From Candidatus Thorarchaeota archaeon (GTDB lineage Archaea; Asgardarchaeota; Thorarchaeia; Thorarchaeales; Thorarchaeaceae): a stretch of DNA of 64,000 nt. The DNA lies in assembly GCA_019057475.1 (NCBI GenBank), contig DXJO01000001.1, positions 1-64,000 of the forward strand. The letters are read 5' to 3'. Made by a program: the position numbers and the translations under genes. This document shows positions 23,965 to 34,258 of the stretch, piece by piece. The notes under the pieces were generated by a model, which saw only the letters and a list, made by a program, of their open reading frames with translations, did no database searches and was not told the origin of the DNA. How positions within the stretch are numbered: position 1 is the first letter of the stretch; every line of letters begins with the position of its first letter.

Positions 23965-24869
23965 TTAGAATTGTGGGACAATGAAGAAGCCAAACAGTAG
24001 AAGTGCTGCAAGCGCTACTGTTAGTGCGGCCCACACCGCTGTATTCCACATCTTGACTGTGGCCCCATCGAATGGTTGTATGGGGATCATATTGAAGGCA
24101 CCAAGCATCGCGTTGAGGATGAGTCCGTAGCGAAGCACGGATAGCATGAGATTAGTCACAGGGTCTATTACTGGAACCCCAACTGCTGCCACTAGCAGCA
24201 GCATTCCGATTGCAATTCCTGCGGCGATGATGAAATTCGTTAGTGGACCCGCCAGGTTTACCTTTCCATCTTCCTCCAAGCTCTTGGCCCTACTAGTTGC
24301 TACAACTCCTGTTCCAAAGATTGGGAATGACCAGAGGATTGCCAACGCTGATAGGAGGTAACCCTGCTGAGTCATGCGGAATTCACTCCATTGTCCATAG
24401 TGCTGAGCGACAAATTTGTGGGCCATCTCGTGTGCCATGAAGGACACCAAGAAGATGCAAATCGTGATTGTAGGGTACCACCAGAAACCAACGCTGACGA
24501 AGTAGATCAATCGCGGAATAGCATTGAATATGCCGCTTGGATATCCCATCATTGAAATGCCAACTAGCACAACTAGGATGGAAGCAATCGCCAAGTCCCT
24601 CTTCTCAGTGGAGGAGAACCTCGCACGGCCGGTTGGTCGCCTTATTGTGCGTCTTTGACTGGAACGTTCATGCACAGGCCGCAGCACTTCCTCCTCAGTG
24701 TACTGTTCACTGAACGAATCAGCAACCTTCCGCCTCGCGTGGTCGCGGGCCTTTTCCATAGCTGGACAACCGTGGCTCTCCGGTAATCTGTGGTCTGCAC
24801 AAAAGACGCAATTGCAATACGGACATGTGAAAGCGAGGTCGTCCTTCCCGCAGAGTGAGCAGTTCACCA
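23965..24869 (-). CDS. AN1-type zinc finger fused to an M50/site-2-protease-like membrane metalloprotease
   Basis: CSLC...FTCPYCNCVFCADHRLPESHGC; HEMAH and NMIPIQPFDG; multiple TM helices. Confidence 0.88.
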
Positions 24870-25028
24870 TTCTAGATACACCATGAAGCTGTCGAGTTTC
24901 GTTGTACTCGCGGTAAGGCAAGTTCTTTGTGTTAATATTCGTATTCCTAGTGGACATTGGAAGCCGTCCGCTTGATTACCTGTCACAGCTGGAAAACATT
25001 CTATGCTTCGTAACGCTTATATACCAAA

Positions 25029-25070
25029 TGGTCCCTAGTAACTACAGTACTAGTTGGTCCCTAGCGGACC
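25029..25070. promoter_or_regulatory. Repeat/palindrome cluster immediately downstream of the TATA box of hsp20-cdc48
   Basis: TGGTCCCTAG direct repeat (25029, 25055); AACTA-N6-TAGTT; GGTCC-N5-GGACC; CTTATATA at 25016-25023. Confidence 0.5.
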
Positions 25071-25161
25071 TGCTGGCATACATGCACAGAATGGAGCCCC
25101 AAAGGTGACTCTTAGGGCGGCAAAGCACCGCCCGGGGCTTCAAAAAAAGAGGCTTGTAACC

Positions 25162-25602
25162 ATGATTGAAGATGATTTCGATAAGATAGTACGCCATATG
25201 TTCGAGAGCTTTTTCTCCCGCTCAAGGGGTTTGAGCGAAGAGGGAAGCACAACCACGAGGTTTCAATTCGAATCAATAGGTGTACCCAGCCTTGGCACCA
25301 ACTCGGGAACTGCCGAAACGGAGCCCAAGGTTGAAACGGTCGATCTCGGTGACACCTGCATATTCGTTGTTGAAAACGCATCCGCGAGCCAAGCCCCACT
25401 GGTACGAGTTGAAGGTAGAGAGTTGTTAGTGGAGTTCGGAACCGAACAAGGGAAACAGATGAAGATTGAGCTTCCTTATGCTGTCGATGTTGAGAAGTCG
25501 AGCTTCTCTCACCGCAACGGAATCACTGAGATTAGCATTGTCCGTGCGGTAGATGAGAGTAGTAGTTCTGATACAAATGAACGATACCTGAGAAGTTTGT
25601 AG
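25162..25602 (+). CDS. Hsp20/alpha-crystallin-like small heat-shock protein
   Basis: IELPYAVDVEKSSFSHRNGITEI motif; position upstream of cdc48 as in many archaea. Confidence 0.8.
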   Translation: MIEDDFDKIVRHMFESFFSRSRGLSEEGSTTTRFQFESIGVPSLGTNSGTAETEPKVETVDLGDTCIFVVENASASQAPLVRVEGRELLVEFGTEQGKQMKIELPYAVDVEKSSFSHRNGITEISIVRAVDESSSSDTNERYLRSL

Positions 25603-25620: not shown

Positions 25621-27807
25621 TTGACAAAAGAAATAATTAAACTCAAAGTGGCCGCTGCAATGCCGAAAGATCAAGGCCGCAGCATAGTCCGGCTAAATTC
25701 AGATGTACGGAATCGGTTGGGCGTCAGGTCAGGCGACTTTGTTTTGCTGAAGGGCGAGAAGGAAACTGTCGCTGTGTGTTGGCCTGGATTACAGGAAGAC
25801 GAAGTGCTTAACATGGTCAGAATGGACGGACTGATCAGAAGCAACGCTGGTGTTAAGCTGGGTGAAGCTATCGAAGTTAGCCCCTTCAATGTACCGGAGG
25901 CTACTCGCGTTGTACTAGCCCCAAGCCAGCCGGTACGATTTCAGAAAGGCTTCGAGCAATACGTGAAACAGCAAATCACAAACAAGCCAATCACAAGAGG
26001 CGATATACTGGTGGTTGCGTCAATCGGACAAGGGCTACAATTTGTGGCAACTGCTGTTTCTCCAAGCAAGCATGTGCGAGTTACTTCCACAACTACTGTG
26101 GAGGTTCTCACGAAGCCAGCCAAGCCGGAGGATGTCAATGTGCCTGCCGTGAATTACGAGGACATTGGAGGTCTGGGCAAGGAGCTTCAGAAAATTCGAG
26201 AGATGATTGAGCTCCCAATGAAGTCACCGGAGCTCTTCAAGCGTCTCGGAATCTCGCCACCGAAGGGAGTGCTTCTCCATGGTCCTCCAGGGACTGGCAA
26301 GACGTTGATAGCCCAAGCTGTCGCGAATGAATCGGGTGCGAACTTTAAGGTCATCAACGGCCCCGAGATTATGTCCAAGTTCTATGGTGAATCGGAACAG
26401 AAGATGCGCGACCTCTTTGAGGAAGCTGAAAAGAATGCGCCAAGCATAATCTTCATCGATGAACTGGATAGCATTGCCCCCAAGCGCGCAGAGGTGACTG
26501 GTGAGGTTGAGCGCAGAGTAGTTGCTCAGCTTCTCGCTCTGATGGATGGTCTTGCAGGTCGGGGCCAAGTTATTGTCATAGGCGCCACGAATAGAGTTGA
26601 TGATATCGACGAGGCGCTCAGGAGACCTGGACGATTCGATAGGGAAATTGAGATTGGGGTCCCTGACAAGAAGGGTAGACTTGAGATTCTCCAAATACAT
26701 ACGAGGTCTATGCCTTTGGAAGAGGGTCTTGACTTGGAGAAGCTGGCCGCAATTACACATGGGTTTGTTGGCGCTGACCTCTCAGCGTTGGCGCGTGAAG
26801 CGGCGATGCAGGCTTTGAAACGAGCGTTACCTCATGTGGACCCGGAAACAGGTGACATCCCCCCGGATATTCTCAACGACCTCTTCGTCACCCAGATTGA
26901 CTTTGACACAGCAGTTGCTGATGTTTCGCCCTCTGCATTGAGAGAATTGCTTGTAGAGCGGCCAAATGTACTTTGGACGGATGTGGGCGGCCTTGAGAAG
27001 GTCAAAGGACAACTCAGAGAGGCTATTGAGGCTCCACTCAAGCATCCAGAGGTCTTTGAGGAGATGGGCATTCGATCACCAAAGGGAGTGCTATTGTTTG
27101 GCCCACCGGGAACCGGCAAGACACTCCTGGCAAAGGCAGTAGCTACTGAGAGTGAAGCCAACTTTATCTCAGTCCGCGGCCCTGAGATCTTCAACAAGTA
27201 CGTTGGCGAGTCCGAAAAAGCCATTCGTGACATCTTCAAGAAAGCTCGTCAAACGGCGCCGTGTATTCTGTTCTTTGATGAAATAGATGCAATCATGAGT
27301 GCCAGAGGAATGCGAGATGATACCGGAGTTAGCCAGAGAATCGTGAACCAGTTCCTCGCGGAACTTGACGGTATGCACACCCTGCGAAACGTTCTAGTCA
27401 TCGGCGCAACGAATCGTGCGGATATCTTGGACCCCGCGGTTCTGCGTCCAGGTAGATTCGATGCGATTGTGTTCGTTCCCCCACCCGATAAGGCAGCACT
27501 CATCGAGATTCTGAAGGTCCATACAAAGAGTATGCCTCTTGCTGATGATGTGGACTTGGAGAAGATAGCTAGCATGGCCGAGGGGTTCTCGGGTGCAGAC
27601 ATCGAGGGATTGACTCGAGAAGCCGCCATGGCTGCAGTCAGAGACGATTGGAAGGCAAAGCCGGTTGCGATGAAACACTTTGAAGCGGCAATGCAAGAGG
27701 TTCGACCAAGCATCTCTTCTGGTGATATCAAACGATACCACTCGATTGCTGAACAGGTGTTCCGAAGGCAACCTCACAGGGATGAAACTGCTGCTGCATA
27801 CATTTAG
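25621..27807 (+). CDS. cdc48: CDC48/VCP/p97-family AAA+ ATPase
   Basis: N-domain DQGRSIVRL; two AAA modules, GPPGTGKT / IIFIDE / RPGRFD and GPPGTGKT / LFFDE / RPGRFD. Confidence 0.98.
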   Translation: MTKEIIKLKVAAAMPKDQGRSIVRLNSDVRNRLGVRSGDFVLLKGEKETVAVCWPGLQEDEVLNMVRMDGLIRSNAGVKLGEAIEVSPFNVPEATRVVLAPSQPVRFQKGFEQYVKQQITNKPITRGDILVVASIGQGLQFVATAVSPSKHVRVTSTTTVEVLTKPAKPEDVNVPAVNYEDIGGLGKELQKIREMIELPMKSPELFKRLGISPPKGVLLHGPPGTGKTLIAQAVANESGANFKVINGPEIMSKFYGESEQKMRDLFEEAEKNAPSIIFIDELDSIAPKRAEVTGEVERRVVAQLLALMDGLAGRGQVIVIGATNRVDDIDEALRRPGRFDREIEIGVPDKKGRLEILQIHTRSMPLEEGLDLEKLAAITHGFVGADLSALAREAAMQALKRALPHVDPETGDIPPDILNDLFVTQIDFDTAVADVSPSALRELLVERPNVLWTDVGGLEKVKGQLREAIEAPLKHPEVFEEMGIRSPKGVLLFGPPGTGKTLLAKAVATESEANFISVRGPEIFNKYVGESEKAIRDIFKKARQTAPCILFFDEIDAIMSARGMRDDTGVSQRIVNQFLAELDGMHTLRNVLVIGATNRADILDPAVLRPGRFDAIVFVPPPDKAALIEILKVHTKSMPLADDVDLEKIASMAEGFSGADIEGLTREAAMAAVRDDWKAKPVAMKHFEAAMQEVRPSISSGDIKRYHSIAEQVFRRQPHRDETAAAYI

Positions 27808-28035
27808 AGTACCGACTTAGGTGTGAGCGATTTGTCTTGCACCCTTAGTCACTTTCTTTTCAATCAGGCAACACCGTGAAGCTTGAACATCAAAGTGAGT
27901 ATTCACGCTTGATGTTCGATTGTCAGATCAGCGCGTAGGGTCCGTCAAGCCGCCCGTGAAATACAGTCACGATAGCCTTTTGAGCCGCAGAGAGGAGCTC
28001 TCCTAGAATCCCAAGAACACAGGTGAACTAAGCGC

Positions 28036-28884
28036 ATGAGCGATTTCTATCCGGTTACTCCGATTGTGGTCATAACTAACACTAGCTACGCTGCTCAAGC
28101 TGGTGTTCTAGGCGAGAAGTGGGCTGTTCGAGTCATCAGGGGCCATAAGATTATCGCTGAGAAGCCAATTAACGAACTCGTACTGGACAGCATAGTTGGC
28201 ATGATATACGGCCACATTAGAATAGAAGGTCTTGGTAGGCACGCTGTGGCGCAAACCGCAGGGCGTCTTATGCAGTTCTCTCGCAGATATCAGCAGTCCG
28301 GCGTATGTCCGAATTATGCGGACCCTAAGCTGGTCTATGGCGATCAAGTGGAAACATCCCCCACAGCATATGCAGAGCCTGAAACAACTGCAGCAGAACC
28401 CAAGATAGAGGTCACGCCTGTGGAGGAGCTGCCGAAAATACCGGCCTTTAAGATAGGCAAGGCCTGGACTGCTACTATCGAGGCGCACTCCGTCATGATT
28501 ACGCGAATGGCAGCGTATGGGGCATCCTTGCCTGAGGGGCATCTTGAATTGATGTTCGAGCAAGCCGCAAGTGACTTGGTTAATTTTTGGTTTGCTCAGG
28601 GTGAAGCCTCTGGACTGATTTCCCGATTCGCTGCAATGATACAAAGCTGCTCTAGAGAGAGCACTATGTCCGAGTCAACAAAAAGCAAGATCATCATGGA
28701 AACTGGGAACTGCGCACTGTTGGAGAGTGCTGGAAACCTCAATAAAGTTGGGATCACTTTTCCGTCAGGATTCCCCTGCAAGTTTCACGAGGAAGTCGCA
28801 AAGCAGGTTTCTGCAAGGACCAAGACTAGGATATCCATTAACACAACTTCTAGCGGATGCACGGTCACAATCGCCCCCTCTTGA
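28036..28884 (+). CDS. Two-domain hypothetical protein with Cys-containing C-terminal V4R/MetOD-like domain
   Basis: 282 aa; Pro/Thr/Glu linker; C-terminal IIMETGNC...FPCKFHE...SGCTVTI pattern. Confidence 0.55.
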   Translation: MSDFYPVTPIVVITNTSYAAQAGVLGEKWAVRVIRGHKIIAEKPINELVLDSIVGMIYGHIRIEGLGRHAVAQTAGRLMQFSRRYQQSGVCPNYADPKLVYGDQVETSPTAYAEPETTAAEPKIEVTPVEELPKIPAFKIGKAWTATIEAHSVMITRMAAYGASLPEGHLELMFEQAASDLVNFWFAQGEASGLISRFAAMIQSCSRESTMSESTKSKIIMETGNCALLESAGNLNKVGITFPSGFPCKFHEEVAKQVSARTKTRISINTTSSGCTVTIAPS

Positions 28885-29501: not shown

Positions 29502-29792
29502 ATGATAATCCTTGAATATCGTGATAGTAAATTCCACGAAGCATCTGGACCATCAGTGTCAGGTATTTCCTTGAAGGTTGATGAAGCCCAGAAGAAACTC
29601 ATACTGATTGTCCCAGCTGGGGTCAGTATGATTCAACGCAGGGCAGCTGAGCGAAACGCTCGTGGCATTTCGAAGATTGGATTCCAAACCAAGACCAAGG
29701 GTGGTGTTGGTCGCGGGTTTGAGATGATGTTCGAAGGCCATGGCGGAGGATTACCAGATCGGCTTAAGCATTCTCCCAGAGAGGTTTACTAA
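29502..29792 (+). CDS. Small protein, possibly a divergent single gelsolin-like domain
   Basis: LKVDEAQKKLILIVPAGVSMIQRRAAERNARGI aligns by eye with CVVDDSSKSIYLWKGSQANIRRKFIGARVATNL of the gelsolin ORF; TATA-like CTTATA at about 29445. Confidence 0.55.
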   Translation: MIILEYRDSKFHEASGPSVSGISLKVDEAQKKLILIVPAGVSMIQRRAAERNARGISKIGFQTKTKGGVGRGFEMMFEGHGGGLPDRLKHSPREVY

Positions 29793-29885: not shown

Positions 29886-31664
29886 ATGTCGAATGATGAT
29901 ATCAAGCGCATAATTGAAGAAGCTACCAAGGAAACCCTAAGGGAGTCCTTTACCGAAGCAGGCCAAAAATACATCAAAGCTGCTGGAGCCTTGGAACAGA
30001 GAGGCGATTTTTCAGGAGCGGAAAAGCTCTATCAACAGGCGGCTGCTACATTCTCCAAGGCAGCAGAAAAATACAGGGCATCAAAGAGCTTCAAGAATGC
30101 TGCACTGAACATGACTTCCGCTGGAGACATGTTGTCGGATATTGGTCAATCAATCCAGGCCATAGCTGCATATTCGCAGGCAGCAGATGATCTCTATGCT
30201 GCTGCGAGCGAGCATCTGATGTGGGGCGAAGATACCGAAACCAAGAAGGGCGCCACCTTGGCGATGGCGGGCTCCATGATCTATATCATGATAGGCAAAG
30301 AAGCCGATGGTTTCCATCGGGCTAGGACATTTTTGGCTGAGAATGCCTCCAAGATGATGTTCCCGGCTGTCGTTCGCCTTAGCCAGATTCCTCAGATGCT
30401 GGAGAGTGCAATCCAGTCCGTGGATGTTAATGCGTTTGCAGATGCAGAAAATGCAGTTGTTACAGAGCTGAAAACTGCGCTGGCCAGTTCTGGTGCTCAG
30501 GAATTCTCGAAGTACGTCGACAAGGGTCTCGACATGGTTAGGGAGATACTCCGTGGGAATCTCAAGGTTCCAAAGATCATCACGCAACTGGACCTTCCAG
30601 TTGACATGACATTTGTTGAACAGTTTCCACTTCGCGTCATCATCCAGAATGTTGGTGACGGAGCTGCCACAAAACTGAGAGCAGAGTGGCACATTGATGA
30701 AGGCCTCGACCACATATCAGGTGATAAAGCCACGACCATATCTTCACTGCCACCTGGCGAATCAGCCACATTTGAAATCAATGCGAAATCCTCTCAAGAA
30801 CTCATGGGCGTCAAAGAGTACTCGATTCTGGTTCGTGGCTCATACATGGACGAGCTCAATACGGAGTACACGCTTCAAGCCGGTCCTGGAACTCTAGTTC
30901 TGAAAGATTTTAAAATGAGTGAGAAGATTGTACGCGATTTGGATGTGACCGAAGCCAGGGTGGACATTCTGGGTTCGACTATCGATGAGTCTCCTCTCGA
31001 CAAGGCTCCGATGCATAGAATCGTCGGAAGCCTCGCAAACTCTCTGAAACAAGTTCGGGCGGACGTTGATGAGAAGGATCTTGATACAGCGAAGGCGCGA
31101 CTCGGAGTCGTTAATCAGATGGTAGATGCGATGGACGCAATCCTCGGAGATGAAGTCATGATGGAGGCGCTGGCTAAGACTCGGAACTACGAGAAGAAGG
31201 TCTATACGAAGTCCGTTCTAGGACCCATTTGCGATAGTGTAATTTCAGCAATCGCTGAACAGGAGCGTAAGATGGAATCTGAGGCTTCTTCGATAAAGGC
31301 CGAATCGACCATTGAAGACGAGAAGAAGAAGCATATCGTGAACACACTCACAGAACTCAAGGTGAAGACTTCTGAAATTATCAGAGACCTCGATACGATT
31401 TACTCTCAGATGCCAAGTGAAGCGACCACAGATATGCCTGATGAAGCTGCAAGAAGAACCAGACTCAGGAGCGCGCTGGAATCAGCGAGGACCAAGACAG
31501 TCGGTGTGGAATCAAATCTTGGCAATGTTGTGAAAGATGAAGCCTTTGCAGTGGGACCGACCTCAGATGTCCCAACCAAGGCCGAGCTCACGTTGGTTGT
31601 TCTGAGGTCTCTCAGGAACAGCATAACTCAGATGATGGATGAGAAGAAAGCCGGGCTAGAGTAG
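29886..31664 (+). CDS. Alpha-SNAP/TPR-like solenoid plus Ig-like (CARDB/BatD-like) domain plus coiled-coil protein
   Basis: Repeated AxxxYxxAA helices; LRVIIQNVGDGAA...LPPGESATFEI beta-sandwich; long heptad-rich C-terminus; GGAGG RBS. Confidence 0.7.
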   Translation: MSNDDIKRIIEEATKETLRESFTEAGQKYIKAAGALEQRGDFSGAEKLYQQAAATFSKAAEKYRASKSFKNAALNMTSAGDMLSDIGQSIQAIAAYSQAADDLYAAASEHLMWGEDTETKKGATLAMAGSMIYIMIGKEADGFHRARTFLAENASKMMFPAVVRLSQIPQMLESAIQSVDVNAFADAENAVVTELKTALASSGAQEFSKYVDKGLDMVREILRGNLKVPKIITQLDLPVDMTFVEQFPLRVIIQNVGDGAATKLRAEWHIDEGLDHISGDKATTISSLPPGESATFEINAKSSQELMGVKEYSILVRGSYMDELNTEYTLQAGPGTLVLKDFKMSEKIVRDLDVTEARVDILGSTIDESPLDKAPMHRIVGSLANSLKQVRADVDEKDLDTAKARLGVVNQMVDAMDAILGDEVMMEALAKTRNYEKKVYTKSVLGPICDSVISAIAEQERKMESEASSIKAESTIEDEKKKHIVNTLTELKVKTSEIIRDLDTIYSQMPSEATTDMPDEAARRTRLRSALESARTKTVGVESNLGNVVKDEAFAVGPTSDVPTKAELTLVVLRSLRNSITQMMDEKKAGLE

Positions 31665-32927: not shown

Positions 32928-33317
32928 CTAATTGCTCAGCAGTGTACCAACTTCGCGAGCGTATTTCCTCATCTGGGTTACTGCTAACCCCATTGAGGTG
33001 AGGTCCTTTGCAGCGCCCATGAGGAGAAAGTTACCTGCATGAGAGAGAACAACAAACCCTCCCTTTCCACGGATCACGACCTCGTAAAGCTCGTCAAGGC
33101 CCAGCTTGTCGGCAGCCATCTCTCCTGTCATGAGCAAAGCAGCACTTACGGCTGCCATCAAGTCCGGATCTGCGTCTGATTCTTCTGTTGCAAAATAGGC
33201 TAACTTGACTCCCTGTTTGCTCACTACGGCAATGGCATCGAGGTCGGCGTAATTAGTCAGGCCCATTAGAAGCTCTACAAGCTCCCTTTCCTTCTGGGGG
33301 TCGATCTGTGATGACAT
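32928..33317 (-). CDS. Roadblock/LC7 domain protein
   Basis: AIAVVSKQG...DLMAAVSAALL..GE.AA..LG...VVIRGKGGFVVL...SMGL pattern. Confidence 0.9.
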   Translation of the reverse strand: MSSQIDPQKERELVELLMGLTNYADLDAIAVVSKQGVKLAYFATEESDADPDLMAAVSAALLMTGEMAADKLGLDELYEVVIRGKGGFVVLSHAGNFLLMGAAKDLTSMGLAVTQMRKYAREVGTLLSN

Positions 33318-33349
33318 TCTCAATACTCCTTGTGTTTACGGGTCGATGC

Positions 33350-34258
33350 TCATTTTGCAACGAGCTTGCTCTTCTTCTTGCCCGCTTTCGACTTGGTCTT
33401 CGCGGCCTCTGGCTTCTTATCTTCGACCTCAGTACGGAAGAATGTGATGAGGTCACTAAGCCTTTCCTTCATCTCTGCCTTGATTGGACTTAGGATAGCG
33501 TCAGGTGTGCCTTTCAAAAGCTCAATGCCCAACACCTTTCCGTTCTTCACAATCACACGTGGAATGAAACCCTCTGCCATAAATGTGCCTTCAGGCGGGT
33601 CCGCCACTTTCTCAAAACGTCTCTCTACCTTCTCCTGTCCGAAAACTGAGATTTTGTGTTCCGCTACCGTGAACAATGTGTTGTACACGATTAGTAGCTC
33701 TCTCTGATAACCTTCCGGAGGTGCAACAGTTTCAAGCTCCTTTATCATCTCATTAATCTGAGCTTGATTGATTGATGATGCGGCAGCACTTGTTGGCTGT
33801 GATCTAGCCGCTGCGGCTGGGACCGGAGGGGGTCTTGTTGGTTTTAGCGCAGGTGGTTTGGGGGGTGGTGCAGTTGGAGTCGTTGTGGTTTCTCCTGCTG
33901 AGGGTTGAGTCCTTTCCACCTTTGGCGTAGGAGGTCTAGGTGGAGGTGCCTTGTCTCCTGGCTTTAGCACCTTTATTGCAGCAGTTGTGCCGTCAAGGGC
34001 AGTAAAGAATGTAGGGGGTTCTTCGCCTTCATCCACTGGGCGCACCTTGAAGTTGAAACCATACTCAGACCTGAGGTTTGTGGCAACTCTCGCGCCGATG
34101 AACTTCCTCCTGATATTCGCCTGACTTCCTTTCCACAGGTAAATGCTCTTCGACGAATCATCCACGACGCATAACACTTTTGTAGAATCTAAGGTCTCTT
34201 TTGTGAGCTCAAGTTCTTGTAGAGTGCCATCCTCGAAGACTTCGTAGCCTGTAACCAT
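33350..34258 (-). CDS. Gelsolin-domain protein with proline-rich linker and C-terminal domain (Asgard one-domain gelsolin type)
   Basis: LDSTKVLCVVDD...IYLWKGSQANIRRKFIGAR...VDEGEEPPTF gelsolin signature; PPEGYQRELLIV C-terminal domain. Confidence 0.85.
   Translation of the reverse strand: MVTGYEVFEDGTLQELELTKETLDSTKVLCVVDDSSKSIYLWKGSQANIRRKFIGARVATNLRSEYGFNFKVRPVDEGEEPPTFFTALDGTTAAIKVLKPGDKAPPPRPPTPKVERTQPSAGETTTTPTAPPPKPPALKPTRPPPVPAAAARSQPTSAAASSINQAQINEMIKELETVAPPEGYQRELLIVYNTLFTVAEHKISVFGQEKVERRFEKVADPPEGTFMAEGFIPRVIVKNGKVLGIELLKGTPDAILSPIKAEMKERLSDLITFFRTEVEDKKPEAAKTKSKAGKKKSKLVAK

Follow-up and report, generated by a model that had tools for sequence, protein, structure and literature searches.

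A usually single-copy protein family of Asgard archaea combining a TPR-type head, an Ig-like domain and a coiled-coil rod

A 64,000-nucleotide stretch of contig DXJO01000001.1 (positions 1 to 64,000, forward strand) from the assembly GCA_019057475.1 of a Candidatus Thorarchaeota archaeon, hereafter the window, carries at positions 29886 to 31664 a gene for a soluble protein of 592 amino acids. This protein is probably a cytosolic, non-enzymatic scaffold or adaptor built from three modules, namely a tetratricopeptide repeat (TPR)-clan head, an immunoglobulin (Ig)-like domain and a helical C-terminal part, and it represents an uncharacterised, usually single-copy family present in most Asgard lineages. 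Because the folds matched by the three modules are without exception binding or structural ones, a non-enzymatic scaffold is favoured, and a binding role is suggested by what these folds do elsewhere. An earlier note, written from the letters of the DNA, had instead compared the head with alpha-SNAP/Sec17 and proposed an adaptor for the nearby Cdc48 or a proto-tethering factor.

Overall architecture of the protein

The gene and its modules, all on the forward strand, are as follows.

29886..31664 (+): the whole gene, encoding the 592-amino-acid soluble TPR-Ig-coiled-coil protein (open reading frame (ORF) and translation)
29886..30569 (+): helical-hairpin head, residues 1-228, 11 helices, TPR clan with a SNAP-like C-terminal cap (model and structure searches)
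30570..30911 (+): Ig-like beta-sandwich, residues 229-342, CARDB / TRAP-beta type (structure and Pfam)
30912..31151 (+): antiparallel three-helix bundle, residues 343-422 (structure search and a/d pattern)
31152..31664 (+): long antiparallel coiled-coil rod, residues 423-592 and the stop codon (secondary structure of the model)

The full-length AlphaFold2 model, for which 32 homologues served as input, reached a mean predicted local distance difference test score (pLDDT) of 85.5 and a predicted template modelling score (pTM) of 0.48, the latter probably reflecting uncertain packing between the domains. Residues 1-228 form 11 helices, residues 231-340 eight strands and residues 344-591 six helices, of which one spans 86 residues. 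The model thus confirmed the order of solenoid, beta-sandwich and helical C-terminal part described in the earlier note, and the Ala/Tyr repeat motifs quoted there are real, starting at residues 24, 45, 59 and 92. When folded alone, the head gave a pLDDT of 93.8 and a pTM of 0.89.

As had also been noted, the protein has neither a transmembrane segment nor a signal peptide, the highest Kyte-Doolittle mean over 19 residues being 1.17. It is acidic throughout, with domain isoelectric points of 4.5-5.2. The start codon is taken as correct because all orthologues align from residue 1. A total of 214 homologues were found, and the Thorarchaeota orthologues are 44-52% identical over the full length; hence the gene is under selection. 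Pfam and NCBIfam searches of the protein and its relatives returned no enzymatic or nucleotide-binding family, and the NCBIfam search of the protein itself returned no match.

The helical-hairpin head

The head (residues 1-228) was compared with 48,161 PDB representatives by VIA-align, an exhaustive structure search that cautions that Z values below about 13 are common for helical repeats. The top match was gamma-SNAP (PDB 2ifu; Z 12.6, root-mean-square deviation (rmsd) 3.5, 139 residues aligned), with model residues 50-220 lying on chain residues 123-275 and the SNAP C-terminal bundle included. Sec17 scored Z 11.3, and after the SNAPs came designed repeat proteins (Z 11.1 and 10.7) and the TPR-like domain of Gemin5 (Z 10.4). 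Similarly, the top 12 Foldseek matches were all Sec17/alpha-SNAP chains (E 1e-4 to 5e-4). Their template modelling (TM) scores were only 0.24-0.37 at an rmsd of 12-14 Å over the full domain, so the overall curvature of the head differs from that of Sec17/alpha-SNAP. The earlier note had held that best matches to generic bacterial TPR proteins, together with no CDC48 interaction, would speak against its reading; in part this was seen, as the ESM Atlas shape search with the head returned only generic bacterial TPR, NB-ARC or Rgg proteins (TM < 0.5), whereas both PDB searches put SNAPs first.

At the sequence level the SNAP likeness was unspecific. With a head profile that included distant relatives, consensus TPR proteins were matched with E values of 5e-7 and 6e-6 and the TPR domain of OGT with 2e-4, but Sec17 and gamma-SNAP only with 0.011-0.017. 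The best TPR consensus match, better than any SNAP, covers residues 27-100 approximately. Against the Pfam SNAP model (PF14938), the protein scored 16.0 bits where the cut-off is 25, and over residues 23-101 only. At E ≤ 0.05 this model matched 24 of the 32 Thorarchaeota orthologues, of which a single one passed the cut-off (33 bits). Each of these matches spans about 80 residues, at profile positions that disagree (7-83, 22-104, 28-83 and 70-143), and short matches in shifting registers are what repeat-level likeness gives. Moreover, PF14938 fired in 4/14 control genomes (Bacillus subtilis, Deinococcus, Bacteroides and Methanosarcina) and in only 7/35 members of the wider family. Pfam TPR_12 and TPR_8 were present in 14/32 and 11/32 orthologues, respectively.

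An internal control for the unspecificity of PF14938 is found on another contig of the same genome (C45). Here a canonical 287-amino-acid TPR protein (L077:1183-2046, -; TPR_12 E 3e-25) scored 41 bits with the SNAP model. Its gene stands directly downstream of, and on the same strand as, that of a 233-amino-acid small Ras/Arf-like GTPase (L077:2098-2799, -).

The first three helices of the head can likewise be overlaid on MIT domains (katanin p60, Z 10.0, rmsd 1.6, 67 aligned), which is read as general TPR-clan likeness and not as a specific MIT relationship. Only the first two or three hairpins retain a recognisable TPR sequence, the remainder being a family-specific helical cap with conserved motifs of its own. 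Residues A73, L103, A187 and L199 of the head are conserved in the family. At residue 228 the chain leaves the head through a conserved K-x-P-K linker, with P229 invariant, and enters the Ig domain, so that a free C-terminal tail is absent. In alpha-SNAP, stimulation of NSF depends on the last 10 residues and on Leu294, the conserved penultimate leucine (PMC2139964). SNAPs also have an N-terminal hydrophobic membrane-insertion loop; its possible counterpart here, the loop joining helices 1 and 2 (residues 19-21), has one Phe close by (F22) and lacks a hydrophobic cluster. A search of the 96.4%-complete genome at E ≤ 0.01 found neither SNARE (PF05739) nor Synaptobrevin (PF00957), although very diverged SNARE-like proteins could escape such a search.

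With its tandem helix-turn-helix repeats matching the consensus, the head is a TPR-clan (CL0020) solenoid whose nearest solved shape is a SNAP. The data do not establish it as a member of the SNAP family: the protein stays below the PF14938 cut-off, the family matches are not collinear, the head lacks a free C-terminal tail, and SNARE substrates were not found in the same organism.

The Ig-like domain

The domain at residues 229-342 was best matched by the lumenal domain of TRAP-beta (Z 14.7, rmsd 1.9, 113 aligned). The MG domains of C3 and alpha-2-macroglobulin came next with Z about 12, some 2.5 Z below TRAP-beta, and a Pyrococcus CARDB domain reached Z 9.7. The match of the protein to Pfam CARDB (PF07705) is sub-threshold (17.8 vs 22.7 bits). 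Meanwhile, 35 diverse family members gave CARDB in 16 cases (best E 3e-6), TRAP_beta in 10 and DUF11 in 9. Few positions are nearly invariant throughout the family, and these include the strand motif N255-x-G257-x-G259-x-A261 and D322. The beta-sandwich, the N-x-G...A motif and the family-model matches identify a CARDB-type Ig domain.

As there is no signal peptide or transmembrane segment, this domain works in the cytosol, an intracellular use of a fold that is normally extracytoplasmic. The TRAP-beta proteins of Asgard archaea carry signal peptides and are described as transmembrane (PMC11417166). An orthologue of TRAP-beta (PF05753) was considered and rejected, since the protein has no hydrophobic segment and its Ig domain is internal to a soluble chain.

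The three-helix bundle and the rod

Residues 343-422 form a three-helix bundle that superposes on a designed three-helix bundle with Z 11.9 and rmsd 2.0 over 82 residues; the PDB structure search also matched it to the lever-arm extension of myosin VI. The C-terminal helices show a/d hydrophobic spacing. In the model, the rod (residues 423-592) consists of the 86-residue helix and two return helices in an antiparallel arrangement, and it matches generic coiled coils, including those of EzrA, CT398, EnvC and Smc5/6, at Z about 10-11. A language-model search with the C-terminal 250 residues gave no usable match. Syntaxin-type matches occurred in the rod (Pfam Syntaxin in 2 members, best 6.8e-4; syntaxin-1A Habc, E 0.12), and a syntaxin relationship was rejected because these matches are weak and of the kind that coiled coils give by composition. 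The rod is the most variable part of the family, whose members range from 422 to 700 amino acids with the variation at this end, while the head, the Ig domain and the first bundle make up the conserved core.

Distribution in Asgard archaea

An exhaustive HMMER search of 1.84 billion representatives yielded no more than 67 proteins at E ≤ 1e-3, a few of them being long multi-TPR proteins that match the first hairpins only (residues 30-100). All the named members are Asgard, assigned to Thor-, Baldr-, Wukong-, Hod-, Kari- and Heimdallarchaeota or carrying other Asgard labels. We further surveyed 301 Asgard genomes in 30 family-level groups (labelled f1, f3 and so on), taking E ≤ 1e-10 as a match. 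The family was matched in 206 of these genomes, nearly always as one copy per genome, and strong full-length matches were obtained in 15 of the 30 groups. In this survey several Heimdall/Hod-type groups had strong matches, group f9 gave weak matches only (E about 1e-12), and groups f3, f7, f12, f13, f17 and f20 gave none. As far as these searches reach, the combination of a TPR/SNAP-like head, a cytosolic CARDB domain and a rod is Asgard-specific.

The genome under study holds one copy of the gene, together with distant shorter paralogues outside the window. These form a convergent pair on contig C47 (about 88.1-91.5 kb), with ORFs of 430 amino acids (L075:38-1330, +) and 245 amino acids (L075:1336-2073, -). 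The 430-amino-acid ORF has a SNAP-like head and a CARDB-like domain. Heads (hhalign probability 87%, E 4e-6) and Ig domains (91%, E 1e-6) are distantly related to those of the 592-residue protein, but the paralogues are separate shorter genes and lack the rod. Unlike the 592-residue protein, the 245-amino-acid ORF passes the PF14938 cut-off (27.4 bits, profile positions 103-206), and it does so in a register consistent with its alignment to alpha-SNAP.

Gene neighbourhood

Three upstream genes that recur in the comparison below are listed here as context only.

25621..27807 (+): Cdc48, with an N domain and two AAA domains (translation)
28036-28884 (+): gene for a 282-amino-acid protein
29502..29792 (+): 96-amino-acid gene immediately upstream, 93 bp from the start of the gene under study, with no significant Pfam family

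The genome has two Cdc48_N genes. The one considered here is on the same strand as the gene under study, and its end is separated from that gene by 2,079 bp containing three small ORFs, in agreement with the distance of 2 kb reported earlier. Across Thorarchaeota, each neighbour was counted as loci with that neighbour over loci with enough flanking sequence. Homologues of the 96-amino-acid gene were present in 59/61 loci, about 385 bp upstream of the start, and a small membrane protein with two transmembrane segments and a polyproline tail lay just upstream in 53/58. Cdc48 was found in 36/37 loci, collinear throughout, with Hsp20 staying beside it (34/36); an aminotransferase was found in 43/48. 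The 282-amino-acid protein, for which a V4R-like fold is proposed, was present in 41/42 loci; sequence searches against Pfam, NCBIfam and PDB found nothing for it, nor did it match the crystallised TRAPPC3 of Thorarchaeota.

The median distance to Cdc48 in these loci is 6.7 kb because other genomes have a GH38 alpha-mannosidase in between, as seen between Cdc48 and the 282-amino-acid gene at L001:3074-5563 and L002:3153-5678. The window has no GH38 gene at the corresponding place (27808-28035), so Cdc48 lies 2 kb away here and not about 4.5-5 kb. Preceding Cdc48 is a weak Hsp20-like gene (25054-25602, +), and divergent from the latter is a gene for an AN1 zinc finger fused to an M50 site-2-type protease (23965-24957, -). 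On the other side of the gene, a 302-amino-acid protein with a weak gelsolin match (33350-34258, -) is followed directly downstream by a Roadblock/LC7 gene (32928-33323, -; Pfam E 4.6e-12, PDB 7f8m E 2e-7).

Outside Thorarchaeota the surroundings differ. Cdc48 was absent within about 10 kb in all 20 loci examined from nine other groups (f4, f5, f8, f10, f14, f15, f16, f22 and f27), and it was likewise not near the gene in one Baldrarchaeia locus and in locus L007. Cdc48 as a conserved neighbour beyond Thorarchaeota was rejected on the 0/20 count. The immediate neighbours vary by lineage and include LSM; Roadblock with S26e and PadR; a TrmB-like protein of 650-760 amino acids; and archaemetzincin. 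No operon partner common to all lineages was found in the loci compared.

The TrmB-like protein is encoded upstream of the family in f22 and f27 (L088:13667-15949, -, and L090:6744-8684, +), and it joins an N-terminal TrmB-type winged helix to a long apolipoprotein-like helical region. Only one operon-like arrangement was found for the family, a trio on one strand seen in Baldrarchaeia (L003:8001-10824), f15 (L085) and f8 (L095), in which the gene is followed by archaemetzincin (Peptidase_M54) and then by a 295-300-amino-acid protein without a family; the gap between the first two is 0 bp in L003.

The whole Thorarchaeota stretch is collinear, including the aminotransferase and, in other genomes, the GH38 mannosidase, and the immediate neighbours differ from lineage to lineage, which indicates inherited synteny. 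The proximity of Cdc48 is therefore best read as a Thorarchaeota-wide conserved gene order and not as a functional pairing. No Pfam family for UBX, SHP, VIM, VBM, PUB or PUL was matched at E ≤ 0.1 in the protein, and none was among the commonest families of 32 and 35 relatives, the search having covered domain families and not short linear motifs. Two runs predicting a complex between the full protein and the Cdc48 N domain each gave a score of 0.00; this was taken as no verdict and counted neither for nor against a pairing.

Proposed role and alternative explanations

In the scaffold or adaptor that we favour, the head is a TPR-clan hairpin stack closed by a small helical cap, with a shape closest to SNAPs, and its groove or one of its faces would most likely bind a protein or peptide partner. 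The CARDB/TRAP-beta-type Ig domain may act as a second, intracellular protein-binding module, while the three-helix bundle and the antiparallel rod may serve as a spacer or a self-association element. The analysis shows the module folds, the solubility, the family range and the gene-order pattern. Several points weigh against this interpretation. The term scaffold is concluded from the folds alone, and SNAPs rank first in two independent structure searches of the head. In addition, one Heimdall-like contig does have Cdc48 6.5 kb from the gene, behind seven genes of mixed orientation. Finally, gelsolin-like genes recur near the gene in f1, in f22 and on the Heimdall-like contig, and Roadblock genes recur in f1, f4 and f16, which could reflect a real functional link.

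The SNAP ranking bears on the idea that the protein is a true, very diverged SNAP/Sec17 homologue recruiting the neighbouring Cdc48 to a helical-bundle substrate, either its own rod or an undetected SNARE-like protein. Cdc48 is a relative of NSF, SNAPs lead both VIA-align and Foldseek, three quarters of the Thorarchaeota orthologues match PF14938, Cdc48 is collinear in nearly every Thorarchaeota locus, and the rod gives weak syntaxin-type matches. We nevertheless consider it unlikely. The lead of the SNAPs over unrelated repeats is about 1.5 Z and lies below the caution level, the superposition over the full domain is poor, the Pfam registers disagree, and an ordinary TPR protein of the same genome scores far better on PF14938. 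Moreover, few members of the wider family match SNAP, the head has no free end of the kind that alpha-SNAP needs, no SNARE or synaptobrevin domain was detected in the nearly complete genome, and the 20 loci from nine other Asgard families have no Cdc48 within 10 kb. The link to Cdc48 in the adaptor proposal of the earlier note is one of gene order only, and that order is kept within Thorarchaeota but not in the other Asgard families. A broader version, in which the family would be an archaeal sister of the SNAPs whose head docks a Cdc48/NSF-type unfoldase onto helical-bundle substrates, is decidedly unlikely; if true, the SNAP-NSF principle of eukaryotic membrane fusion would be older than SNAREs and eukaryotes.

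The recurrence of gelsolin-like and Roadblock genes raises the doubtful but conceivable alternative that the protein is part of an Asgard actin/membrane module, together with the small upstream genes (the two-transmembrane, polyproline-tailed one and the putative gelsolin-like 96-amino-acid one) or with the nearby gelsolin and Roadblock genes. Both small genes are conserved in Thorarchaeota as counted above. Relatives of the 96- and 302-amino-acid gelsolin-like genes stand two or three genes away in f22 and within 5 kb on the Heimdall-like contig, and Roadblock lies within four genes in f1, f4 and f16. However, Pfam gives nothing significant for the 96-amino-acid protein, most other families lack such neighbours, and Asgard genomes contain many gelsolin and Roadblock genes. 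A metabolic gene, the aminotransferase, recurs in the same neighbourhoods (f1, f4 and f22), and the gelsolin and Roadblock recurrence is accordingly read as residual synteny. It is highly improbable that the protein is a proto-tether, that is, a small relative of solenoid-plus-Ig tethering subunits such as TRAPPC8/11/13. The order of solenoid and Ig domain is common to both, a language-model feature search lists eukaryotic TRAPPC11 (Gryzun/Foie-gras) at 0.79 and TRAPPC8 at 0.78, and TRAPPC13_C matches 3/35 members (E 0.019). Language-model scores below 0.9 count as no more than leads, and in a third of cases shuffled proteins score as high as 0.8, so the tethering idea of the earlier note comes down to a sub-threshold lead. 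No TRAPP chain was in the top 50 of any structure search, and the 282-amino-acid upstream gene has no sequence match to the crystallised TRAPPC3.

Comparison with known systems

Our literature searches found no paper describing an Asgard SNAP/Sec17 or this protein family, and SNAP, Sec17 and NSF are not mentioned in the main text, as distinct from the supplements, of two structure-based Asgard protein surveys. The family is single-copy, cytosolic and present in most Asgard lineages, including Hodarchaeales and Heimdallarchaeota, and it has no known function. Should the SNAP likeness turn out to reflect common descent, the family would be relevant to how the vesicle-fusion recycling machinery arose. 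As the evidence stands, the protein is a TPR-clan scaffold, and its value is that of a defined target for pull-down and structural work and not that of a demonstrated SNAP ancestor.

Like the SNAP family (alpha/gamma-SNAP and Sec17; PF14938; PDB 2ifu, 1qqe and 9cru), the head consists of Ala/Tyr-rich antiparallel hairpins closed by a small helical bundle. SNAPs have about 290 residues and 14 helices (sizes from chain lengths), compared with 228 residues and 11 helices here, and the protein differs from them further in its extra Ig domain and rod, its other curvature and its lack of a free C-terminal tail. The lumenal domain of TRAP-beta (SSR2) and the CARDB, DUF11 and MG domains have the same beta-sandwich, and the N-x-G-x-G-x-A motif is common to both; TRAP-beta, however, has a signal peptide and is transmembrane, unlike the protein studied here. 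With generic TPR proteins (CL0020: TPR_12 and TPR_8; CTPR and OGT) the head has in common the consensus motif in residues 27-100 approximately, and it departs from them beyond the first two or three hairpins, where the family-specific helical cap begins. The evidence does not make the protein a SNAP, a TRAP-beta or a recognised cofactor of Cdc48, and by the best-supported of these comparisons it would work most like a TPR adaptor.

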